Shown: positions 32,176 through 44,917 of the stretch, one piece after another | Layout of the letters: every line of letters begins with the position of its first letter | Position numbering within the stretch: position 1 is the first letter of the stretch | Assembly (NCBI GenBank): GCA_023266475.1 | Contig: JAHFQA010000003.1 | Coordinates: 1-50,985, forward strand | Reading direction: 5' to 3' | Source of the DNA: Candidatus Woesearchaeota archaeon | Lineage (GTDB): Archaea; Nanobdellota; Nanobdellia; Woesearchaeales; GW2011-AR4 | DNA: 50,985 nucleotides | Made by a program: the position numbers and the translations under genes | Notes under the pieces: model-generated | Seen by the model: the letters and a program-made list of their open reading frames with translations, nothing else | Databases searched by the model: none | Told to the model about the DNA's origin: nothing

Positions 32176-32817
32176 TCAAAACAATCCCAGCAAATTGAGA
32201 AACTGCTCTTTTGATTCGCATTTGAAATAAGGATTATTTTTCTTTTCATTCCCGATTGTTGAGAATGGAATTTCCCCATAATTATGCCCCGGATAGATTT
32301 CAATATGGTCATCTAATTTTTTCAGCTTCTGCAAACTTTCAAACAATTTTATTGAATCGCCGCCAGCCAAATCTGTTCTTCCGATTGCATTAACAAACAA
32401 AGTGTCTCCTGTTAACAACTTTTTTTCAACAATAAGGCAGATTGCGCCAGGAGTATGGCCAGGGGTATGTATAATTTTTATTTTTATGTTTCCAATTTTT
32501 ATTTCATCATTGTTTTTTAGTGTGGCTGCTTTTATTGAATCAGTGTTAATAGTCTTTTTAATCTCATCAAAATCCAATTCATGGCAATACACAGTTGAAT
32601 TTGTCGCTTCGGCCAGCTTATTAGTTTTCTGGATATGGTCAAAATGAGAATGAGTCAAGATTATTTTTTTTATTTTCAGGTTTTCTTTATTTGAAATTTC
32701 TATTAATTTATCAACTTCCCATCCTGCATCGACAACAGCAGCTTCTTTTGTGTTTTCGTCTCCTATTAAATATACAAAATTCTGCATCGGGCCGACTGGA
32801 ATTTGATGGAATATCAT
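32176..32817 (-). CDS. MBL-fold metallo-hydrolase (glyoxalase II-like)
   Basis: THSHFDH metal motif, HTPGHTPG, and GDTLF. Confidence 0.88.
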   Translation of the reverse strand: MIFHQIPVGPMQNFVYLIGDENTKEAAVVDAGWEVDKLIEISNKENLKIKKIILTHSHFDHIQKTNKLAEATNSTVYCHELDFDEIKKTINTDSIKAATLKNNDEIKIGNIKIKIIHTPGHTPGAICLIVEKKLLTGDTLFVNAIGRTDLAGGDSIKLFESLQKLKKLDDHIEIYPGHNYGEIPFSTIGNEKKNNPYFKCESKEQFLNLLGLF

Positions 32818-33179
32818 TTTACAAATTCTACATTTGCCAAATTCTCAAATTGTCCGTCACCTGTAAGAAATTTAAAGTTATGCTTCAATGATAATGTATA
32901 GCCGACACAGTCCGTTAATGATAAATCTATTTTTTTATTTATATGCCTAAAGTAAATTGCCCCTACAATAATTTCTGGAGTTATCTCCAAAAGCTTAAAA
33001 TTAGAATTGTCAAACCATTCATCCGCTGATATTTTTCCATCCTTCCTCAATATGAGCTGGTATATTTCCCCTATATTCAAAACACTGGTTACAATTTCAA
33101 ATTCTTGAAATCCTTTATAAGAAGGGTTAATTCCATTATCCATTTCTATGATGGCGTAAGAATCAAAAAAATATGTCAT
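32814..33179 (-). CDS. vapC: PIN-domain toxin VapC
   Basis: PIN acidic residues in context (YFFDSYAIIE, LTDCVGY, LTGDGQF). The ATG at 33179 lies 7 nt after the antitoxin stop. The track ORF extension to 33215 overlaps vapB. Confidence 0.8.
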   Translation of the reverse strand: MTYFFDSYAIIEMDNGINPSYKGFQEFEIVTSVLNIGEIYQLILRKDGKISADEWFDNSNFKLLEITPEIIVGAIYFRHINKKIDLSLTDCVGYTLSLKHNFKFLTGDGQFENLANVEFVK

Positions 33180-33186
33180 TTTTATA

Positions 33187-33414
33187 TTAAAAACCCACAT
33201 TAAATTCTTTGTCAATTTCCCTCATTAGCTTCTCAGTAGGCTCTTTAAATTTAAAAGTACCCCAAATATCTTTCCCTTTGGTTATAGGTTTTGTGCTTAT
33301 CATTAATATAATTTCTTGATTCGGCTTTATATTTTCTTCTTTAACTACTTCTTTGGGTATCAATACGCCTATGGAATTTCCCCATTTCTTTGTTTTGACT
33401 TTTATTTCCATCAT
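33187..33414 (-). CDS. vapB: AbrB/SpoVT-fold antitoxin VapB
   Basis: KKWGNSIGVLIPKEVV looped-hinge-helix signature. Immediately upstream of the PIN gene. Confidence 0.8.
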   Translation of the reverse strand: MMEIKVKTKKWGNSIGVLIPKEVVKEENIKPNQEIILMISTKPITKGKDIWGTFKFKEPTEKLMREIDKEFNVGF

Positions 33415-35435: not shown

Positions 35436-38400
35436 ATGAAAATACTAAATAAAAAGTTGACAAGTAGTTTAATTTTGATATTCATATTACTTTCAACTGT
35501 CATTTATGCCAGGCCGGTAACAGACATATTCTCAGGCGGCTTAATTCAAATTAATAATTTTTTTGAGAATGAAGGCTATGCTCCATATGCAAAAGCTATT
35601 GACTTTTTCTTCTTTTCAATTCTGTTTATAGCAATCTATATGATGGGCGCAAGGTATGCCTTTAAGGAAATCAAAAGGCCTGAGCAAGTTATTGTGATCT
35701 TGCTTGGGCTGATGACAGCTTTCCTGCTTGTTCTAGCTGATATTTCAGCTGTAATATTGCTGCCGTATATTCAGTGGCTTCTTTATACGTTGCTGTTTAT
35801 CCTGTATTGGTGGCTGTTGAAAGGCATCCAGAATAAATTCTGGCGATTTGTTTTGGCGTTGCTTTTGACAATATTGACAATTGCTTTGATTCAAGGGTTG
35901 TTTAATACATTAACAGCGCCTCAAGCTCCTGAGTTAGGTGTTCCATCATTTGGATTAGGAGGAATTGGCGGCTTTTTCAAGGATTTGTTTGGAAGCTTTA
36001 AAGGAATTGACTTAGGCGGAGTTTCAGCGCCTGGCGTGCCTCCCTGGATGAAGGATTTGTTTGGATTGCCTTCTGTTACAACACCAACTGGACCAACTCC
36101 GTTGCCAGGTATAACAACACCCGGAGGAGGAGCTGGCGGTGGTGCTGGAGGAGGTGGTGGTATAGGGGGAACTCCTTGGTACAAAAATCAATGGACATAT
36201 CTTATTCCATTGGCAATTCTGCTGTTAGCTCTTGCAATTTGGGGAGGGGCTAAATTAAGAAAAAAAGGTGAGGGGAAGAAAGAGGAGGAAGGAAAAGAAG
36301 CAGGAAAACAACAAACAACAGAATCTATTGAGATTCAGAAAATAATACAAGAAATAGACGTATATTTGAAACTAAAGTATGAAATTCTTAAAAAAATTTA
36401 TATAATATACAAAAGAAAAAATCTGCTGAATCCTGACCCAACAGAATATTATTCACTTGATAAATATCATAAAAAAATTAAAGAACTTTTGGATAAAGAT
36501 GCATCTTATTTGCTCGACCCAGATACACATACCGGCCAAGATCTTTTTGAGGAAGGCAATAAGGTACACGAGCTGATAAAAACAGAAATTGGACTTGGAA
36601 AAGCCCTTGTTGAACTGCTCAGCATGGAGTATAAGCTAAGCGGCTTTAAAGATAAAAAAGGAGATATCCAAAAATGGGCAGAATCAACCATAAAAGAATT
36701 TGTCAAGTCTAAAGAAGAGTTTGATAGCAAAACTGATGAGTATAAGCAATACCATAACCAGCTTATGGCTTATTTTAACAAATTGGTAAAAATTTCTGAT
36801 AACGCAAAATCAAATATACATGATTATTTTGAAATTACAAAAAAGCATATTGAAAAAGAACAGGAGTTAGAGAAATTACTTGATCCAAAGAAACTTGAGG
36901 AATTGGTAAAAACGGCAAGGGTCAAGCAATGGCTTGAATTGGTTGAAATCAAAACCGTGGAATCACGTAATTTTTCCGGGATATCCAAATTTGTCAAAGA
37001 TGAAAGGGATTTCTTGAAGAAGTATTTATTTCCTGCAATAAATCAGGAAAGAGGCTACCTCAGGTATATCAAAAGGCTAATAGAATTATTAGCCTCTAAA
37101 ATGGAAATTAAGGTGATTGTACAGGACTTGAAGGTTTATGAGAAAGGGATATTGGAAGGGGAGGAAAAATGGTCAGATATAACAGAATCAAGACTAAAAC
37201 CCGGAATCAAGTATGGAACTGAGATTAAAGTTGCAACGCGTGTATTCAGGGGTCCTGAATCTGGAGAATTAAATCCCAGATTCATCGCCCAATGTTATGT
37301 TTACAAATATGCTTCTGACAAAACTGAAAGTGAAATTCATCCTGGCGGAAGACCTAAGCCACCTTGGATTCCAATAAAGAAAACTAAAAATATGTCTAGC
37401 ATAGAGTTTAGAAATTTGATAGAAAAATACAAACAAACAGAAGAGTACAAAAAGAAGCTAGAAGAATATGAAGATGCAATTAACCAACGCAACATTCAAT
37501 TACTTCTACACACAAAACCTGTACAAAAAACTATAGAAGAAGTGCTAGAATTTGAATCTACCAAGGATTTTGGCACATTAGAGCCTGGAAAATATAAAAT
37601 AGTTGTATATGTCAAATCTATTTTGAAGGAGCAAGAACTTGCGATGAAGGAAGACTTGGCCCTTCAGAATAAAGATAATCCTAACTATGTTAATCTAGAT
37701 TACCCGAATGCTTTAACTAGATACGGATGGGATACAAAGCATGTAGATATTTTTATACAAAGCCTGCCTGAAACAAAAATAGAAGTTGAGATAGAGCCAA
37801 AAGAAGTCAGAAAGAAAATTAAAAATGAAGAAGGGATTGATGAAGGAACTGATTTCAAAATTACTGTTACAGCTATTGAAGGAAAGCCGCCATTTACAGT
37901 CTATTATGATATTCTAAAAGATCCTATCATTGGAGCTGAAAATCCGCCTATTTTTGTTTTGGAGCGGCCGATTCATGTTGATCTTAAAGATCCTTATATC
38001 TTTACTCAAAGGATAATAATCAGCAATCTGGATGATAGGTATTTGAATAAAGACAAAAATTACTTAATCCATGGAAAATACCTTATTCGAATTTATGTAA
38101 CGGGCTCTTCTGGAATTGAAAGATTGGACAAAAAAGATGAAACAATTAAGATAATAGTAAAAGAGCCCCCTAAGACGGAAATAAGCGATTTAATTATAAG
38201 CAAGCATGTCCCCAAGAGAGTAATAGACATTAGACTCGGAAATATAGGCGAAAATTTTAAGTGGAAAGATATAACAAATACTGCTTTAAATCCTGGAATT
38301 AAATATAGAACACCAATAAAAATTTCAACGAAAATACTGAAAGGAATTTCAACATTAACAGCTTCTTGCGAGATATTCATAAAGAGGAGGCCTGGTGATA

Positions 38401-39989
38401 TGAGTTATGTTATGGGTCTTATTGACAATCCTGACGAAATGGAGAAAATTTATCCCGGGTTTGTAATCCCACCTTCTAAGCTGATACCGACAGATGCAAA
38501 AGAAGTCGAATTCAGCTCCGGAGAATTTGGAAACCTTGCACTAGGTGAGTATAAGATATATATTTCTGTTGAAGGTTATGATATAGCAAAGAAGTCAATT
38601 GATATTAAGATTATAAAAACTAAAGAACAAATTATAGAAGATGATAAAAAAGCAAGAGAAAGGCAATTACTCCTAAATGCGGATGAACAAGAAGTCTTCA
38701 AAAAATTACAGGAATTTTTATTGAGAATAGAAAAAATAAATTCAGCATTTGAGAAATTAATAGAAAGTGAAGGAGATATAAACTCCCACACTGCAAGGCA
38801 AATTTCAAGGGCAAGGGACGAATTGAAATTGGTTAATTATGATACTGATTCGGCAATTGATATTATTAGGATTTTAAACGATAATGAAGCTGTAGAACAT
38901 ATTATATATGAAATAAAGAGAAAACAAGGAACCAATTCAGGATGGTATGTTTATTATTATGGCACAAATGCATTTGAATTTATCAAATCAACACTAATTC
39001 CTTATATTGAAGATAAATTAGAGAGACTTGAAAGAATAGCTGAAAATCCTTATTTGGCTGATGAAACAATATTTAAGAGGCCCGAAGAATTAATACAACA
39101 GCCTCTTCAACCACCTATAATAATTCTGGAACCATTAGAAAACTCAAGCCATGCAATCGACTCGTATATAAGATTTGAAGCAAGAGTTGTTGGAGCCGAT
39201 GACTTGATAAGTTCAGGAAAAGCAAGCATACATTGGGTTTTAAAGCAAGTTGGAACTGAATGGACACTACTAATCCTTAACATTGATAATCTTGCTCAAA
39301 TCCCATTTGCTGATGTAGATGGCAAAAAGTTTGAGCCCAATAAAGAAGCAGATCTTTCCGTGGGATTATTTGATACCGATGGAAATTTAATAGAAATTAA
39401 TGGCAAGTATATTTTTAACAAAATCTCAATAAAATTAACTCGGCCATTAACGCCTACGACTCGAAAGATTGGGGAAGTTACAGAGCCATTATCAATCCCG
39501 CAGGAAATTTTGAAAAAACCCTTAGCAACCGGCGAAAGAAATAAATATTTTGAAGGATTAGCAAGAAGTCGTAAATTTAGCCAGCCACAACAATATATTC
39601 CAGCTACATCTTCTGAGCTTTTAAATGAATGGGGCGGGTCGCTTGAAAGAAAAGGGGAAAAAGAAGGAGTGGAAAAGAAAAGAAGCTTGGTAAGTGATTA
39701 CAAAAAAGAGTTCTTAGTCATTTTGAATAGTATAAAAGAAGACAGGGCAACATTAAGACAACGGATTAGTAAATCAGGATTAGCAAAAGAAAATATGCAA
39801 GAAGTAAGAAAATTATTAAGTGAACTAGACGAGAATATTGAAAAGGCCGGCAAAACATACAAAAAAATGTATTTAGAATCAGCCAAGAGCAAGATTTACG
39901 ATTTGACATCATTAACTAGGGATGTCCAGAAACCAGTAGGAAAAAGGATAGTAAAAAATAAAACTTTAAATAAAAGTAAAATTAAATAA
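35436..39989 (+). CDS. Giant (1517 aa) polytopic membrane protein with Gly/Pro-rich loop, coiled coils and duplicated beta-rich modules; unknown function
   Basis: Uninterrupted 4.55-kb ORF. About six hydrophobic helices in aa 1-272, a GGGAGGGAGGGGGIGG tract, Lys/Glu-rich coiled-coil stretches, and a repeated KW.DIT...L.PGIKY.T.IK / FG.L..G.YKI module. Confidence 0.8.
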   Translation: MKILNKKLTSSLILIFILLSTVIYARPVTDIFSGGLIQINNFFENEGYAPYAKAIDFFFFSILFIAIYMMGARYAFKEIKRPEQVIVILLGLMTAFLLVLADISAVILLPYIQWLLYTLLFILYWWLLKGIQNKFWRFVLALLLTILTIALIQGLFNTLTAPQAPELGVPSFGLGGIGGFFKDLFGSFKGIDLGGVSAPGVPPWMKDLFGLPSVTTPTGPTPLPGITTPGGGAGGGAGGGGGIGGTPWYKNQWTYLIPLAILLLALAIWGGAKLRKKGEGKKEEEGKEAGKQQTTESIEIQKIIQEIDVYLKLKYEILKKIYIIYKRKNLLNPDPTEYYSLDKYHKKIKELLDKDASYLLDPDTHTGQDLFEEGNKVHELIKTEIGLGKALVELLSMEYKLSGFKDKKGDIQKWAESTIKEFVKSKEEFDSKTDEYKQYHNQLMAYFNKLVKISDNAKSNIHDYFEITKKHIEKEQELEKLLDPKKLEELVKTARVKQWLELVEIKTVESRNFSGISKFVKDERDFLKKYLFPAINQERGYLRYIKRLIELLASKMEIKVIVQDLKVYEKGILEGEEKWSDITESRLKPGIKYGTEIKVATRVFRGPESGELNPRFIAQCYVYKYASDKTESEIHPGGRPKPPWIPIKKTKNMSSIEFRNLIEKYKQTEEYKKKLEEYEDAINQRNIQLLLHTKPVQKTIEEVLEFESTKDFGTLEPGKYKIVVYVKSILKEQELAMKEDLALQNKDNPNYVNLDYPNALTRYGWDTKHVDIFIQSLPETKIEVEIEPKEVRKKIKNEEGIDEGTDFKITVTAIEGKPPFTVYYDILKDPIIGAENPPIFVLERPIHVDLKDPYIFTQRIIISNLDDRYLNKDKNYLIHGKYLIRIYVTGSSGIERLDKKDETIKIIVKEPPKTEISDLIISKHVPKRVIDIRLGNIGENFKWKDITNTALNPGIKYRTPIKISTKILKGISTLTASCEIFIKRRPGDMSYVMGLIDNPDEMEKIYPGFVIPPSKLIPTDAKEVEFSSGEFGNLALGEYKIYISVEGYDIAKKSIDIKIIKTKEQIIEDDKKARERQLLLNADEQEVFKKLQEFLLRIEKINSAFEKLIESEGDINSHTARQISRARDELKLVNYDTDSAIDIIRILNDNEAVEHIIYEIKRKQGTNSGWYVYYYGTNAFEFIKSTLIPYIEDKLERLERIAENPYLADETIFKRPEELIQQPLQPPIIILEPLENSSHAIDSYIRFEARVVGADDLISSGKASIHWVLKQVGTEWTLLILNIDNLAQIPFADVDGKKFEPNKEADLSVGLFDTDGNLIEINGKYIFNKISIKLTRPLTPTTRKIGEVTEPLSIPQEILKKPLATGERNKYFEGLARSRKFSQPQQYIPATSSELLNEWGGSLERKGEKEGVEKKRSLVSDYKKEFLVILNSIKEDRATLRQRISKSGLAKENMQEVRKLLSELDENIEKAGKTYKKMYLESAKSKIYDLTSLTRDVQKPVGKRIVKNKTLNKSKIK

Positions 39990-40245
39990 TTTATATCCAA
40001 AATTTTAATTATATGGGAAATTCAAAAAAATTCCCAACCCAACTACAAGATATATGCTACTTACAGCAAACGCAGTTAATTTTCCCAAAAAAAAATGCGT
40101 TTTGTGAACTAATCACTTTTATAAAAATTTAGTTCGTTGGCTAAAAAAGGAGTTCTAGCTTTGGATAATTTTATTAGAATTCAAGTTTAAGCATAAAGTT
40201 TATATATTATATCTTATACATCATTTGAATTATATTATTTATGTG

Positions 40246-40291
40246 ATGTAAAATGGAATTAATTCAGCTGGCAAAAAGGCTTGAAGGATTG
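40246..40291 (+). repeat. 46-bp direct repeat, copy 1 (left boundary of the AbiE cassette)
   Basis: ATGTAAAATGGAATTAATTCAGCTGGCAAAAAGGCTTGAAGGATTG, identical to 41941..41986. Carries an orphan start plus 13 codons (MELIQLAKRLEGL) ending in TAG. Confidence 0.95.
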
Positions 40292-40341
40292 TAGTCAGCA
40301 ACAGTATAGTAATAGAAAGATATATAAATATGTTATGTATT

Positions 40342-40368
40342 ATATTGTTATAAAAAATATAACAATAT
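40342..40368. promoter_or_regulatory. Inverted repeat ATATTGTTATA-AAAAA-TATAACAATAT upstream of abiEi (candidate autoregulatory operator overlapping a TATA-like box)
   Basis: Perfect 11-bp arms, ending 9 nt before the ATG at 40377. Confidence 0.45.
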
Positions 40369-40376
40369 GTGATAAA

Positions 40377-41003
40377 ATGGTATTAAGGCTGCTTGTAAGG
40401 AAACTGGAGTTAACAGATAAGAGATTCATCACAAGGAAAGAACTTAAATCCTACTGCAAAGAATTGAAGCTAGATTATTATACAGCTATACGGTATCTTA
40501 CATCAAACAGCTATTTAATAAGAATTTTGAGAGGCGTATTCTACATTAAGTCCATAGAAGAAAGAAAGCTAAAAAAAATAAATATAAACTATATAGATGC
40601 CTTGAAAGAAGCATTAAAAATTAAAGATGTCAAATGGTACTTTGGGCTGGAGTCTGCAATTAAATTAAATAACCTCACGCATGAATATTTTGCAATTGAG
40701 ACTATTATAACAGATTCAATGTTCAGGCCGAGACCCATAGAAATATTAGGCACAAAGATTAAATTTGTTAAGATAAGCAAGAATTTGTTTGCTTTTGGGC
40801 TTATTGGAAAAGATTTTAAGCACTCAGATATAGAAAAAACATTGCTGGACATTATTTATCTCGGGAAATATAATAATTATTCAGAAGAAGAAATAAGAAA
40901 TAAAATAGTATCTTTACTAAAAAATTGCGAAAAAAGCAAACTAATGAAATATGCAGAACATTATCCCAAAACAGCTAGCAAACTTTTACTCAAATTAATA
41001 TGA
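40377..41003 (+). CDS. abiEi: AbiEi-like wHTH antitoxin (type IV TA / abortive infection)
   Basis: Sits upstream of, and overlaps by 4 nt (ATGA), an AbiEii-type gene. N-terminal wHTH-like segment (FITRKELKSYCKELKLDYYTAIRYLTSNSYLIRILRGVFY). Track start at 40281 is a TTG inside the repeat. Confidence 0.65.
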   Translation: MVLRLLVRKLELTDKRFITRKELKSYCKELKLDYYTAIRYLTSNSYLIRILRGVFYIKSIEERKLKKININYIDALKEALKIKDVKWYFGLESAIKLNNLTHEYFAIETIITDSMFRPRPIEILGTKIKFVKISKNLFAFGLIGKDFKHSDIEKTLLDIIYLGKYNNYSEEEIRNKIVSLLKNCEKSKLMKYAEHYPKTASKLLLKLI

Positions 41004-41926
41004 TAGAAACTAAACTTATAGATTATTTGGCTGAGAAATCTGAAATAAAGAATAAAGGTTTGATTGAAAAAGACTTTATTATTCAATCACTACTAGCTAG
41101 CTTTTCGAAAAACAACTACATCAGCAAAAATTTTGTATTTAAAGGAGGTACTTGCCTTGTCAAGTGCTATCTGGGCTATTTCAGATTTTCAGAAGATCTT
41201 GATTTCACATTTATAAGCCAGAATTCATTTAAGAACAAAAGCGAAAAGGAAATAAGAAGATTGCTGTCTGCTGAGATAAATAAATTGATTGGAATAATTG
41301 TTGATATTTCAAATGCTTACGGGCTGGATTTTAAGGCAGAGAAGCATAATAAAAAGTATGTTGAATTTGGAGGCAGCAATAAATTCTTGACATTAAAGAT
41401 ATGGTATATGTCATCTGTAAATAAACTAGAGCAGTTCATCAAAATTCAAATTAATTTTGTTGAGCTTTTTGTGTACAAATTCAAAAAATTAATAGCAGAG
41501 CCATTGGTTAGTGTTCAAAAAAAAGAGGCTGAATTCTTATTCCCTGATTATTCATATATTTTACTGGCAAAACCAAAATTAACAGTGTATGATACAAGAG
41601 AACTTCTATTAGAAAAAGTACGAGCTATTTTGACAAGAAGGGAAATAAAAGCAAGAGATTTTGTTGATGTATTTCTTATCAATAAAAAATTAAACAAAAA
41701 CATCAGGGCGTTTAAAGAAGGCATTATATTAAAGACCCTATTTATGCTAAAGTATGAAAAATACAGGGAAAACTTAGAAGAGAAAACTAATTTGAAAGAA
41801 TGGGTAAAGGCAGGCCAAGAACATTATCTTCTTTTGAAACCCTTAAATGGATTTGAGCATTTTCTAAGAGAGACAAAATTATTCCTCAACGAGCTTGTAA
41901 GAGAAATCTTAAGGAAACAAGTATGA
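41000..41926 (+). CDS. abiEii: AbiEii/AbiGii (DUF1814) nucleotidyltransferase toxin
   Basis: Family-typical N-terminal NTase motif FVFKGGTCLVKCYLGYFRFSEDLDF and C-terminal LLEKVRAILTRREIKARDFVDVF. Confidence 0.8.
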   Translation: MIETKLIDYLAEKSEIKNKGLIEKDFIIQSLLASFSKNNYISKNFVFKGGTCLVKCYLGYFRFSEDLDFTFISQNSFKNKSEKEIRRLLSAEINKLIGIIVDISNAYGLDFKAEKHNKKYVEFGGSNKFLTLKIWYMSSVNKLEQFIKIQINFVELFVYKFKKLIAEPLVSVQKKEAEFLFPDYSYILLAKPKLTVYDTRELLLEKVRAILTRREIKARDFVDVFLINKKLNKNIRAFKEGIILKTLFMLKYEKYRENLEEKTNLKEWVKAGQEHYLLLKPLNGFEHFLRETKLFLNELVREILRKQV

Positions 41927-41940
41927 ATATAGATATTGTC

Positions 41941-41986
41941 ATGTAAAATGGAATTAATTCAGCTGGCAAAAAGGCTTGAAGGATTG
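41941..41986 (+). repeat. 46-bp direct repeat, copy 2 (spans the true 5' end of the next wHTH gene)
   Basis: Identical to 40246..40291. Contains the ATG at 41948. Confidence 0.95.
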
Positions 41987-42574
41987 CAAACGGTAGACAG
42001 CATAGCCAAAACCCTTGAAATAGACAGAAGAACAGCAATCAATTATGTCTGGAAATTAAGAAAAGATGGCTATGTAGGGACAATTTACGGAAAAAGGAAG
42101 ATAAGAATGTACAGGATATCTCCAATAAGACTTATTAAAACTGGTTATCCGGGACTTTACGAATTCCTGAATCAAAACTCCAGAATTAAAATCTATGCAC
42201 CATATACTAACAGGATTTATGACCATAAGCCAACTGCAGAAGAAATGATAGTAAAAGCTGTTAAAACTGGTGATTTAAGAACCATACTTTCTGCATTAGC
42301 TTTGTTTAATAAAATAAAAGATTGGCCAGTTTTAAGCCAGAGAGCAAAAGAAGAGCATATTGGCAGAAAAATAGGGGCTTTGTACGATACAGCAAGATCA
42401 ATAATGAGGGTTAAAAGAATGGACAAAAGAGCAAGAAAGGCACTCTTAAAGAGTCATGTAAAAGATAAGTTTATAGTGAAAGGCGCAAAAACAAATGACT
42501 TAAAAGATATTGAAAAAGTATGGAAAGTATATCTGCCTTTTAATAAAGCAGATTTGGAGGCCTATAAAATATGA
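41948..42574 (+). CDS. wHTH protein, putative antitoxin/regulator partner of the downstream nucleotidyltransferase
   Basis: N-terminal wHTH (VDSIAKTLEIDRRTAINYVWKLRKDGYV). 4-nt ATGA overlap with the next gene. Track start at 41936 is TTG. Confidence 0.6.
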   Translation: MELIQLAKRLEGLQTVDSIAKTLEIDRRTAINYVWKLRKDGYVGTIYGKRKIRMYRISPIRLIKTGYPGLYEFLNQNSRIKIYAPYTNRIYDHKPTAEEMIVKAVKTGDLRTILSALALFNKIKDWPVLSQRAKEEHIGRKIGALYDTARSIMRVKRMDKRARKALLKSHVKDKFIVKGAKTNDLKDIEKVWKVYLPFNKADLEAYKI

Positions 42575-43260
42575 TTAACTTGCAAGAGCAGATAAGCCTT
42601 TTTAAGATAATAGGGAGCCAGCTCAAAAATAAAGTGGAATGCGTTGCAATAGGCGGCTCCGCATTGATGTTCTATGGAGCAAAAATCACTACAAAAGATG
42701 TTGATTTGGTTTTATTGAAAAGAGAGGATTTAGAAACTGTAAAGAATGTGCTTTTTCATTCGGGGTTTGACGAAAGAAAAAATATTAAAGGCATTTTTAG
42801 GGAAGACGAAGATATGGTCAAACCCATTATGATGGGCGGCAAAGATACAAGGTTTGATCTTTTCTTAAATGAAGTTATAGGCTTCAAAATTCATGAAAAG
42901 ATTATTGAAAGAATTAAAGAAGTTCATGAATTTGGCAATTTCAAAGTAAATATAGCAAGCCCTGAAGATATTTTAATGATGAAAGGATGCACAGAAAGGG
43001 AAAAAGACAGGGATGACGCTGCAGAATTAATAAAAAAATTTAATATTAATTGGGACATTATTCTCGATGAAACATCAAATCAAGCAAAAATTGGGATAGC
43101 TGCTTTTCCAATATTGCTTTATGATTTTTTAACAGAGATAAGGGATAATTACAAGCTAGATGTTCCAAAAAAAATAACAAAAGAACTTCTTTCTATTGCA
43201 AGTAAAAGAATAAAAGAATTAAGGAAAAAGGGCAAGTTGATCAAAGTCACCAAATATTGA
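42571..43260 (+). CDS. Pol-beta-superfamily nucleotidyltransferase (DUF2204/AbiEii-like class), putative toxin
   Basis: NTase signature IGGSALMFYGAKITTKDVDLVL, a third acidic residue in RFDLF, and the helical SPEDILMMKGCTEREKDRDD motif. Confidence 0.65.
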   Translation: MINLQEQISLFKIIGSQLKNKVECVAIGGSALMFYGAKITTKDVDLVLLKREDLETVKNVLFHSGFDERKNIKGIFREDEDMVKPIMMGGKDTRFDLFLNEVIGFKIHEKIIERIKEVHEFGNFKVNIASPEDILMMKGCTEREKDRDDAAELIKKFNINWDIILDETSNQAKIGIAAFPILLYDFLTEIRDNYKLDVPKKITKELLSIASKRIKELRKKGKLIKVTKY

Positions 43261-43879: not shown

Positions 43880-44503
43880 TTATCTTTCTTTAATAATATC
43901 AGATTCTAAAATTCTTGTCGGAATTAAAATTTGAACCTCTAGATAATCCATTTTCCAGCTGTTTAGATAATCTTTAACTTTTTCAGATTCTTCGACTGGA
44001 GAGAGAATAATCCTTTCAGAAAACTTAAATAACTTTAATTTTTTAAGCATACCCTCGCTGTTTCTCCCATATAAGCTGTAATAAAAGCGCATTCTTTGTG
44101 ATTTATTAAAGCTTTTAATATCATATCTGAATAGTACCATGGGTTTATATCCAAGACCATCAGCTATATACTTTCTTTGTACCAAACTGTAACCTTCAGA
44201 AATATAAGATTCTCTGGCAATAAATGCGGAATCAAATAAATCCTTATAGGATTTTTGTACTAAGTCTATTTCAACACCTAAGACTTCAATTGCTTTTTTT
44301 ATTTTGTAACTAAGTTCTGGATTAATTTTTGTTTTATAAATCACAAGTAAATCTAGATCCTTGGGCTTTTCTTTTCCCTTAACTGAGGAACCAAATACTA
44401 CTACGTCCAAGATTTCAACCACATTTTCCTTAACTATATTTTGAATTTTAGATGCTAATTTTGCATTCTTCAATAATTCTTTCCACATTTTTCCTGACCT
44501 CAT
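43880..44503 (-). CDS. Minimal nucleotidyltransferase (MNT) with ~100-aa C-terminal extension
   Basis: VVVFGSSVKGKEKPKDLDLLVIY MNT signature. ATG at 44503 or 44488; either overlaps the HEPN gene end (44448). Confidence 0.8.
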   Translation of the reverse strand: MRSGKMWKELLKNAKLASKIQNIVKENVVEILDVVVFGSSVKGKEKPKDLDLLVIYKTKINPELSYKIKKAIEVLGVEIDLVQKSYKDLFDSAFIARESYISEGYSLVQRKYIADGLGYKPMVLFRYDIKSFNKSQRMRFYYSLYGRNSEGMLKKLKLFKFSERIILSPVEESEKVKDYLNSWKMDYLEVQILIPTRILESDIIKER

Positions 44504-44783
44504 CGCATGTTAATTTATCAATTGTCAAAGAATAAGTTTGCCTGTAGATTGGATAATATTTGTCCAAAATGGAATATTGTTCAGAAAAATTCTCTTTTAA
44601 AATGCTAAATCTTTCTGTATGGTCTTTCGGTGTTTTCCCTTTTTTTTGCAATATTATTAAGTCCAGTACAACAAACAGGCATTTAAAATATAATATAGTT
44701 GAAGAAGTATAATCTCCTGCACTATAAACTATTTCCGCTGAATTCTTGAAACTTTTAATATTTTTAATCAAATCTTCTTTCAT
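44448..44783 (-). CDS. HEPN domain protein (COG2250 type)
   Basis: Helical protein with GDYTSSTILYFKCLFVVLDLIILQKKGKTPKDHTERF and YYPIYRQTY, matching HEPN partners of MNTs. The track ORF (GTG at 44900) runs through the operator region, so I prefer the ATG at 44783. Confidence 0.7.
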   Translation of the reverse strand: MKEDLIKNIKSFKNSAEIVYSAGDYTSSTILYFKCLFVVLDLIILQKKGKTPKDHTERFSILKENFSEQYSILDKYYPIYRQTYSLTIDKLTCDEVRKNVERIIEECKISI

Positions 44784-44896
44784 GTTGGTAGTGGAAACGA
44801 ATAGGTTATTTAAATAGCTTTCGGTTGGTAACACCAACTTTGTTGGTAGGAAAAACATTTTAGCCTTATTTAGACTTTTTTGTTGGTTATACCAAC
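44784..44896. promoter_or_regulatory. Operator array: two GTTGGT-N3-ACCAAC palindromes plus two half-sites around a TTTAAATA box upstream of the HEPN-MNT operon
   Basis: Palindromes at 44824..44838 (GTTGGTAACACCAAC) and 44882..44896 (GTTGGTTATACCAAC). GTTGGTA half-sites at 44784..44790 and 44842..44848. TATA-like 44807..44816. Confidence 0.5.
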
Positions 44897-44917
44897 GCAC
44901 TTAGCATAGAAGCCTAA

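Follow-up and report, generated by a model that had tools for sequence, protein, structure and literature searches.

The subject of this analysis is a stretch of 50,985 nucleotides from a Candidatus Woesearchaeota archaeon (GenBank assembly GCA_023266475.1, contig JAHFQA010000003.1, positions 1 to 50,985), hereafter called the window. At about 40 kb, two genes encoding a putative AbiE toxin-antitoxin (TA) pair, abiEi and abiEii, separate the promoter of a resident operon from the genes that it would normally serve, which encode a winged helix-turn-helix (wHTH) protein and a DUF6036 nucleotidyltransferase (NTase). The two AbiE genes are bracketed by a perfect direct repeat of 46 bp that contains the start of the wHTH gene. 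After comparing this locus with its counterparts in other archaea, we consider it probable that the AbiE module was inserted there long ago with a long duplication of the target, and that the locus was then inherited and reshuffled by host recombination. It is most likely an old, inherited, and recombining insertion of a known type, and not a freshly captured mobile cassette.

A target sequence duplicated on both sides of the AbiE cassette

An earlier note on this DNA, made from the sequence alone, had reported exact 46-bp repeats around AbiEi and AbiEii, with the second copy being the true start of the wHTH gene. This was confirmed, as the 46-mer ATGTAAAATGGAATTAATTCAGCTGGCAAAAAGGCTTGAAGGATTG is present exactly twice with 0 mismatches (all coordinates in Table 1). 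There is no third copy in the 51-kb window even when 3 mismatches are allowed, and the number of matches expected by chance is 0 (100 shuffles). With one mismatch the repeat grows to 50 nt (49/50), the copies being spaced by 1695 nt. Copy 2 includes the ATG at 41948 and the first 13 codons of the wHTH gene. Copy 1 has an identical ATG (40253) and the identical 13 codons, followed by a TAG. A resident promoter and an orphan mini-ORF (open reading frame) were left upstream of the cassette, as the note had proposed. The copies enclose an 85-nt leader, abiEi, abiEii, and a spacer of 10-14 nt, and the 1.65-kb insert carries no other gene than abiEi and abiEii.

A scan of one genome per species revealed the wHTH-DUF6036 pair at 29 loci (individual loci are given below by their L numbers). 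AbiE genes lie upstream of the wHTH gene at three of these species loci, one of them with an internally deleted abiEii, and the remaining 26 of the 29 lack AbiE. The empty site that the earlier note had recommended looking for in related genomes is the common state. In 15 empty-site relatives (L004, L058, and 13 others), a TATA box (-54), the motifs TACATCA (-36) and TGATGTA (-9), and the ATG are joined directly to the wHTH gene. Up to where copy 1 ends, the window is collinear with the empty site of these 15 relatives, and collinearity resumes where copy 2 begins. As most relatives have an empty site in which this promoter and leader directly precede the wHTH gene, the cassette can be regarded as a discrete insertion into the 5' end of the wHTH-NTase operon, in line with the initial proposal. 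The comparison supports the view that the structure of the window is the one expected from the entry of a cassette with duplication of its target. The empty-site relatives are other species (47-82% identity of the wHTH protein), whereas the published screen for comparable insertions, discussed below, used genomes of the same species.

Closer relatives of the window are filled. Three other ENA contigs, all from different samples, encode exactly its wHTH protein, and all three have a gene for a 308-aa AbiEii just upstream. The contig L001 is 97.9% identical to the window over 3.1 kb and includes both copies of the repeat, with one extra mismatch in copy 1, and L002 is 99.6% identical and starts inside abiEi, so that only copy 2 is visible. 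The closest sampled lineage (L058, 82%) is empty and comes from the same sample as L002. We also observed a wHTH protein 99% identical to that of the window (P0001, ENA sample ERZ27296333). The 1.8-kb contig that encodes it has just 116 nt before this gene, and no gene was called there. This might be an empty-site variant from the same population or a mere contig break.

Weaker similarity just outside the repeat had also been pointed out, and it stands: the similarity beyond the repeat in the window outscores 298 of 300 shuffles when a gap of 7 nt is allowed. Past codon 13, L036, L039, and the window retain weak homology between the copies (equalled by 2-5 of 300 shuffles), which is undetectable in three other filled loci. 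As a remnant of the repeat, the decayed tail after copy 1 is no more than suggestive. Because the weak homology continues past codon 13, the original duplication may have been longer, perhaps about 80 bp.

Shared junctions, diverged repeats, and swapped cassettes

Eight filled loci were compared (the window, L001, L003, L005, L011, L036, L039, and L040), seven of which were found by protein-guided scans. Exact and degenerate pattern scans for the 5' end of the wHTH gene gave no match in JGI metagenome contigs or GTDB genomes. The filled loci come from a subclade of Woesearchaeota, and all of them have copy 1 directly after the resident promoter. On the left, they share a junction made of copy 1, a short variable tail, the conserved leader GTATARTAATAGAAAG..TATATAAATATG, and then a region with a palindrome. 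On the right, the stop codon of abiEii is followed by 3-25 nt and by copy 2. As these junctions are shared, the insertion at the wHTH site may have had a single origin. The wHTH proteins of the filled loci are 74-90% identical, except for the near-identical ones of the window and L001. In the tree of this protein, six filled loci form one clade with one empty sister, and the window and L001 form a neighbouring branch.

The extent to which the two copies have diverged varies between genomes. Among the 39 coding nucleotides of the repeat, copy 1 differs from its own copy 2 at 0 positions in the window, 1 in L003, 1 in L005, 2 in L036, 4 in L039, 10 in L040, and 12 in L011. In the window, L003, L005, and L036, copy 1 has its closest match in the copy 2 of the same genome, with 0-2 differences compared with 3-4 or more for the copy 2 of any other lineage. 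By this measure, the two copies evolve in concert in these four genomes. In L039, L040, and L011, copy 1 is not nearest to its own copy 2 (4-12 differences). A recent or lineage-private event, as the earlier note had implied, does not agree with eight loci that share their junctions and whose repeats have 0-12 differences per 39 coding nucleotides. The sign that it had named for an ancient event, i.e., relatives sharing the arrangement with diverged repeats, was partly found in the eight filled loci.

The history of the cassette was not that of the gene into which it was inserted. In the AbiE tree, the cassettes at the wHTH site fall into a clade A (window, L001, L003, and L036) and a clade B (L005, L039, and L040), and clade A is nearer to L037 and L038, two cassettes located at other sites, than to clade B. 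L003 and L039 have AbiEi and AbiEii proteins that are only 64% and 65% identical for wHTH proteins that are 90% identical. The reverse is observed between the window and L003 (87% and 84% for AbiEi and AbiEii, 76% for wHTH). A sliding-window comparison showed two haplotypes that are 55-70% identical from the cassette promoter to around codon 190 of abiEii, whereas identity is about 75-95% in all loci for the wHTH gene, the final third of abiEii, and the region of the resident promoter and copy 1. In L039, the cassette is mostly 85-99% identical to that of L005, and the body of the wHTH gene is 95-98% identical to that of L003. Because the identities of cassette and host genes are incongruent and the sliding-window comparison reveals mosaics, homologous recombination appears to reshuffle the locus, its breakpoints lying close to the repeats and within abiEii.

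A few observations concern individual segments of these loci. The last third of abiEii (41570-41926, codons ~190-308) has 79-94% DNA identity across both haplotypes, the rest of the cassette being 55-70% identical. Either recombination has a boundary within the toxin gene here, or the C-terminal domain is under strong constraint. Between L001 and the window, abiEi, abiEii, and wHTH are 99-100% identical and the DUF6036 proteins 88% identical (L001 2719-3231 versus window 42571-43083), which indicates a putative recent recombination breakpoint at the wHTH/DUF6036 boundary of L001. Two loci show signs of decay: L011 (144-1069) has kept abiEi and only the last ~90 codons of abiEii, and in L040 (2188-2398) about 100 extra nucleotides separate copy 1 from the cassette promoter.

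Related cassettes at other sites

The earlier note suggested searching for the same AbiE cassette elsewhere, and 11 related cassettes were found at other sites, four of them with significant flanking repeats. For 17 cassettes, the 300 nt upstream of abiEi were compared with the 300 nt downstream of abiEii, using mismatched pairs as the null (mean 9.0, maximum 14, n=242). All six wHTH-site loci scored 20-49, and 4 of the 11 other-site cassettes scored above every null value (20, 21, 17, and 25, with repeats of 17-43 nt). These four (L042, L047, L051, and L055) are on JGI metagenome contigs and their AbiEii proteins are 44-54% identical to that of the window. The repeat of L042 covers a ribosome-binding site with the start codon and 6 codons, that of L047 the region of the stop codon of an ATPase gene lying upstream, that of L051 the 3' end of a regulator gene in convergent orientation, and that of L055 the junction between the stop and start of two co-oriented genes. 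In all four, the insert ends on its right side 0-11 nt from the abiEii stop. No tRNA genes were found as targets of the other-site cassettes.

We rejected a joint movement of copy 1 and the cassette: L037 and L038, sister cassettes located at other sites, have no copy of the wHTH start, so copy 1 derives from the target and is not part of the cassette. A 12-nt match found in L038, 359 nt upstream of abiEi, was also rejected as a repeat since its score is within the null range.

One of the filled loci also contains a second cassette of another kind. In L005 (5581-6329; the same as L007, GCA_964364025.1), a RelE/ParE-like cassette with genes for proteins of 93 and 123 aa, the latter with weak YoeB/ParE-like matches, lies between the wHTH and DUF6036 genes. 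It is flanked by a direct repeat of 22 nt (19/22) across the wHTH stop and DUF6036 start, which normally overlap. The same two genes follow the wHTH gene in L006.

Absence of recognizable mobility functions

The earlier note had seen no integrase or transposase nearby. In agreement with this, we found none among the ORFs within ~9 kb or among 25 of the 55 Pfam families matched in the remainder of the window. No inverted repeat pairs both ends of the cassette among the 25 longest pairs, and a scan of viral contigs revealed no relatives of the cassette.

Three types of elements were considered and rejected. Gene cassettes of integrons have an attC site at their end and depend on an IntI integrase with a nearby attI site, and TA cargo is common in chromosomal integrons. 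Here, no integrase was found among the ORFs and families just mentioned, the abiEii stop and copy 2 are only 10-14 nt apart, and no inverted repeat or attC-like palindrome is seen at the cassette end. Transposons and insertion sequences have terminal inverted repeats, a transposase, and short target duplications of fixed length. For the AbiE cassette, we found no transposase in the same search and no terminal inverted repeats among the 25 longest pairs, and the direct repeats range from 17 to at least 50 bp and differ among sites. Integrative elements encode an integrase and carry the same att core to every site. We found no integrase to account for an attL/attR pair, and the other-site cassettes have unrelated repeats copied from their own targets. 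The locus resembles integron cassettes and transposon duplications in that discrete cassettes lie close to a promoter and have direct repeats at their ends. It differs in having long and variable repeats (17 to at least 50 bp) copied from the target, as opposed to short ones of fixed length.

The AbiE module and the resident operon

Profile searches recommended in the earlier note assigned both proteins to the expected families. AbiEii matches Pfam PF08843 (1.3e-24, 87.9 bits for a cut-off of 22.5) and the PADLOC AbiEii profile (2.3e-60, positions 5-291 of 296). AbiEi matches the PADLOC AbiEi profile (1.7e-48, positions 15-200 of 205), and its match to Pfam AbiEi_4 is weak (0.038) and below the cut-off. 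The abiEi stop and the abiEii start share 4 nt (41000-41003), a bicistronic overlap as in AbiE systems. The NTase motifs of AbiEii reportedly consist of a glycine motif, an acidic pair, a K...R motif, and a DxxD motif. The AbiEii of the window has GG49-50, D66/D68, K206, R213, and D220/D223, which are invariant in four homologues. The exact-protein look-up gave no record for the AbiEii and DUF6036 proteins of the window.

In AbiE systems, the toxin halts growth unless the antitoxin counteracts it, and together they provide protection against viruses. AbiEi also negatively autoregulates the system via inverted repeats in the promoter. The pair in the window may have the same TA or abortive-infection activity. 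Its own promoter would be P2, whose 23-bp palindrome ATTGTTATA-AAAAA-TATAACAAT (40344-40366), between the TATA-like box and the abiEi start codon, is a candidate operator for AbiEi. The P2 region is kept in the cassettes of clade A, including L037 and L038 at other sites, and homology among cassettes at different sites begins approximately at the TATA box. Compared with AbiE type IV TA systems (Dy et al. 2014; Hampton et al. 2018), the window has the same overlap of an AbiEi-like regulator gene with a DUF1814 NTase gene, conserved NTase residues, and a 23-bp promoter inverted repeat where autoregulation by AbiEi would be expected. It differs in being an archaeal homologue with a sub-threshold match to Pfam AbiEi_4 and in having one visible palindrome.

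Table 1. Features of the AbiE insertion and of the resident operon in the window
Feature	Position	Strand	Remarks
Putative resident promoter P1	40199..40250	+	TATA box TTTATATA (40199-40206, -54 from ATG) and inverted-repeat arms
P1 arms	TACATCA 40217-40223 (-36); TGATGTA 40244-40250 (-9)		Flank the expected transcription start; candidate wHTH operator
Direct repeat copy 1	40242..40291 (exact 46-mer 40246-40291)	+	Promoter-proximal; orphaned wHTH leader and codons 1-13
Orphan mini-ORF	40253..40294	+	MELIQLAKRLEGL and stop codon
Possible decayed continuation of copy 1	40292..40317	+	Weak homology to wHTH codons 16-22 past a 7-nt gap
Putative cassette promoter region P2	40320..40366	+	TATA-like ATATATAAAT (40320-40329) and palindrome
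abiEi	40377..41003	+	Predicted antitoxin and transcriptional regulator, 208 aa; PADLOC AbiEi
abiEii	41000..41926	+	DUF1814 nucleotidyltransferase, predicted toxin, 308 aa; PF08843, PADLOC AbiEii
Direct repeat copy 2	41937..41986 (exact 46-mer 41941-41986)	+	Functional wHTH gene start
Resident wHTH gene	41948..42574	+	208 aa; strongly conserved in Woesearchaeota
Resident DUF6036 gene	42571..43260	+	Nucleotidyltransferase, 229 aa; PF19502 1.1e-7; 4-nt overlap with wHTH stop

The second gene of the downstream wHTH-NTase module, already recognized as such in the earlier note, could be assigned to DUF6036 (Table 1). It follows the wHTH gene at 29 of the 29 species loci, immediately so except in L005/L007 and L010. 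The wHTH protein has 239 homologues. Among the 120 listed, identity is 69-99%, nearly all have 208 aa, and those with a named source come from Woesearchaeota or Nanoarchaeota genomes. Its domain matches (HTH_11, TrmB, and Csa3-type HTH) are weak, and sequence searches of the PDB gave no useful match. The wHTH-DUF6036 pair is 47-82% identical to that of the window across Woesearchaeota and some Aenigmatarchaeota. Judged from its sequences, this conservation is more like that of a housekeeping regulator-enzyme pair than that of a typical mobile TA module. We rejected a recent paralogy of AbiEi with wHTH and of AbiEii with DUF6036, since pairwise comparison gave no significant similarity. Therefore, the two modules are analogous and not recent paralogues.

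The TATA box, TACATCA, and TGATGTA are at identical offsets in 14 of the 15 empty-site relatives, and likewise in every filled locus where a check was possible, which makes P1 a putative promoter and the TACATCA/TGATGTA dyad a candidate operator of the wHTH protein. The geometry of P1 (40199-40250 in the window) is rigid across species, with equivalents in L004, L009-L022, L031, and L058.

A proposed history and its alternatives

The history that we favour starts with a compact AbiE module having its own promoter and operator, the antitoxin and repressor gene abiEi, and abiEii for a toxin that would be a GTP-type nucleotidyltransferase. This module would have entered long ago between the promoter-proximal end and the body of the wHTH-DUF6036 operon. 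The insertion would have duplicated the target from about -15 to at least +39 of the wHTH start codon, possibly to about +70, leaving the native promoter, the leader, and the first 13 codons upstream as copy 1. Because the target was duplicated, the resident wHTH gene would have remained intact in the form of copy 2. This mode of insertion would require no recombinase encoded by the cassette. Campbell-type integration, in which a circle enters via a homologous segment, would not account for the first entry at a site without prior homology. The locus would then have been inherited in one subclade and reshuffled by homologous recombination of the host: lineages would have swapped cassette alleles, the two copies would have undergone gene conversion or unequal exchange, and the cassette would probably have been lost precisely through recombination between the repeats. 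If the repeats are substrates for host recombination, their homogenisation, the loss of cassettes, and the exchanges between lineages would all be explained. Recombination would be the homogenising force that keeps the copies of the window identical, the copies having drifted apart in other genomes. We infer from the lack of an oligo-T tract that P1 reads through the mini-ORF into abiE and onward into wHTH-DUF6036, and P2 would be autoregulated by AbiEi at the 23-bp palindrome.

Several points weigh against this history. The same junctions would result from the horizontal spread of a unit carrying one copy of the repeat. The main filled clade does not include the lineage of the window, and the sampled relative nearest to this lineage (82%) has an empty site, which requires at least one extra loss or one horizontal gain. 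Homogenisation is assumed to result from recombination across only ~50 bp, and the primary insertion has no established mechanism, either here or in the precedents. Furthermore, 7 of the 11 other-site cassettes have no significant flanking repeat, and the repeats of the other four were judged from the filled sites. Finally, selection on copy 1 might account for its upkeep, an explanation weighed below.

Alternatively, the window might contain the recent insertion of a currently mobile cassette, using an att-like site or forming a circle, with the cassette and one copy of the repeat, that re-enters empty sites by a single crossover. We regard this as unlikely, even if the perfect repeat in the window genome (46/46), the presence of the empty nearest lineage in the same sample, and the incongruent phylogenies of cassette and host genes all speak for it, as does the presence, against another host background, of a near-identical cassette leader (up to 99%). 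The leader and first 13 codons are also conserved enough across lineages to provide a landing pad. However, no circle, tandem amplification, or same-strain empty-site variant was found, the strains at 97.9-99.6% identity are all filled, the arrangement is common to lineages with 74-90% identity in wHTH, and none of the scanned viral contigs has a relative of the cassette. The earlier note had favoured an att-like or homology-mediated capture. The recombination mosaics agree with a homology-mediated spread, whereas an att-type site borne by the element is contradicted by the different, target-copied repeats at other sites. A broader scheme would make the repeats working parts of a recombinase-free life cycle of TA cassettes in DPANN archaea. 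Host recombination would release a circle, the wHTH start would be a portable landing pad, and re-entry in the same or related lineages would regenerate repeats largely of the recipient type, a mode that might be general for small addiction modules in these reduced genomes. This is a speculation to which we give little credence.

The idea that copy 1 is maintained by selection is distinctly doubtful. Copy 1 would act as the operator or initially transcribed region of P1, or encode a leader peptide coupling transcription from P1 to abiE, and its identity with copy 2 would be a by-product. P1 and copy 1 are indeed kept in all filled loci while the sequence upstream of P1 is unalignable, the dyad TACATCA-N20-TGATGTA (arm starts 27 nt apart) has a fixed geometry with its right arm inside the repeat, and the differences among copy-1 sequences are mostly synonymous. 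Yet, the mini-ORF has total lengths of 4-35 aa in relatives, with its first 13 codons kept and tails that are variable and not conserved, and it is interrupted by a stop at codon 5 in L011. Because the length of the tail varies and L011 has this stop, the peptide is probably not under selection. The copies in L040 and L011 differ at 10-12 of 39 nt. Codons 2-13 of 14 empty-site genes show no excess of synonymous constraint (diversity of 0.44, versus 0.40 gene-wide), leaving no evident DNA or RNA element in the coding part. The search of Rfam for 39.5-45.2 kb gave nothing credible and the RNA folding of the P1 leader is not significant (z=-1.55). Selection on motifs also fails to explain why copy 1 tracks the lineage-specific changes of copy 2.

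Another scenario, in which different AbiE cassettes (clades A and B) entered one hotspot several times independently and each produced a fresh duplication, would fit the two deeply divergent haplotypes, the proximity of clade A to L037 and L038, and the match between repeats and host lineage in four genomes. This seems very improbable, as both clades have the same junctions on either side and the same final third of abiEii, which has diverged little. Recombination that exchanged the cassette core inside an insertion already present is a fitting account of this. An assembly artefact, i.e., a loop of the assembly graph through a 46-bp exact repeat that is shorter than many assembler k-mers resolve at low k, is hardly conceivable and this concern of the earlier note can be set aside, given that the two-copy structure is also present in the independently assembled ENA contig L001, with its extra mismatch in copy 1, and in six loci of other lineages from NCBI and JGI assemblies, with lineage-specific repeats.

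Comparison with known insertions with long target duplication

Insertion with long target duplication has hitherto been known only for bacterial restriction-modification (R-M) units (2000, Gene 259:99; Furuta, Abe and Kobayashi 2010, PMC2853133; review in PMC3874152). These units have no mobility genes and are flanked by direct repeats of 46-47 bp to several hundred bp that match a single-copy sequence of the empty site and often span translation starts or stops, the target gene surviving the insertion (PMC2853133). In the published screen no archaeal case passed, and the mechanism of insertion is unknown (PMC2853133). Its authors propose that the repeats permit later amplification and release (PMC2853133). 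The remark of the earlier note that 46 bp is long for a target-site duplication thus holds for transposons, and does not for this class of insertions, where such a length is typical (PMC2853133).

The thresholds of Furuta et al. 2010 are a repeat above 30 bp and an insert below 20 kb, to be compared with 46/46 or 49/50 and 1.65 kb in the window. As far as sequence can tell, the locus belongs by its structure to the class of long target duplications, with a new cargo and an archaeal host. As in the R-M insertions, direct repeats of tens of bp surround a small addiction-type unit that has no mobility gene, and these repeats are single-copy at the empty site of relatives, lie across a translation start or stop, and result from an insertion in an operon that left the target gene intact. 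The differences are that the cargo is of the TA or abortive-infection type, outside the R-M cargo of the screen, that it lacks the double-strand-break activity invoked for R-M units, that the host is a DPANN archaeon, and that the insertion is old and inherited in a subclade, with homogenisation of the repeats and swapping of cassette alleles. Campbell-type integration and cassette exchange offer a second parallel, since entry of a circle via a homologous segment yields flanking direct repeats and homologous exchange yields mosaics with breakpoints near the repeats. The window differs in that no circular form or vector was observed.

How TA and defence modules move between chromosomal sites without mobility genes is poorly understood. 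We found no report of the long-target-duplication mode for TA cassettes in the searchable literature, and the locus extends this pattern to a TA or abortive-infection cassette and to archaea. As AbiEii is not a DNA-cleaving protein, the result argues against explanations that require double-strand breaks made by the cargo. Moreover, the locus provides a natural series, in which empty sites occur alongside repeats that look fresh or have decayed, cassette alleles that were swapped, and one degraded cassette. This series shows the fate of such insertions over time. It also shows how a newcomer can be placed behind a resident promoter while the invaded operon stays intact.

Chromosomal context

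The window encodes fibrillarin, Nop5, SecDF, CTP synthase, and similar proteins, as well as one tRNA. Given this gene content and the Woesearchaeota and Nanoarchaeota homologues of the wHTH protein, it is part of an AT-rich DPANN archaeal chromosome of the Woesearchaeota type. Upstream of the operon, a gene at 35436-39989 (+ strand) ends 210 nt before P1. Its 1517-aa product has membrane segments at the N-terminus, a stretch rich in Gly and Pro, and long repetitive regions rich in Lys and Glu. The upstream neighbour of the operon varies among lineages. Immediately downstream of the operon (43880-44900, - strand), a minimal NTase gene (PF18765/PF01909, weakly MntA-like) overlaps a gene with a weak HEPN domain, and these weak matches hint at a HEPN-MNT-like TA module. 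With this third NTase-type pair, the region of 40-45 kb would be a small islet of three NTase-based modules. Another toxin-like neighbour may be found further upstream (32814-33215, - strand), where the gene of a PIN-domain protein (PF01850, 5.8e-7) overlaps the start of a gene with a metallo-beta-lactamase fold.

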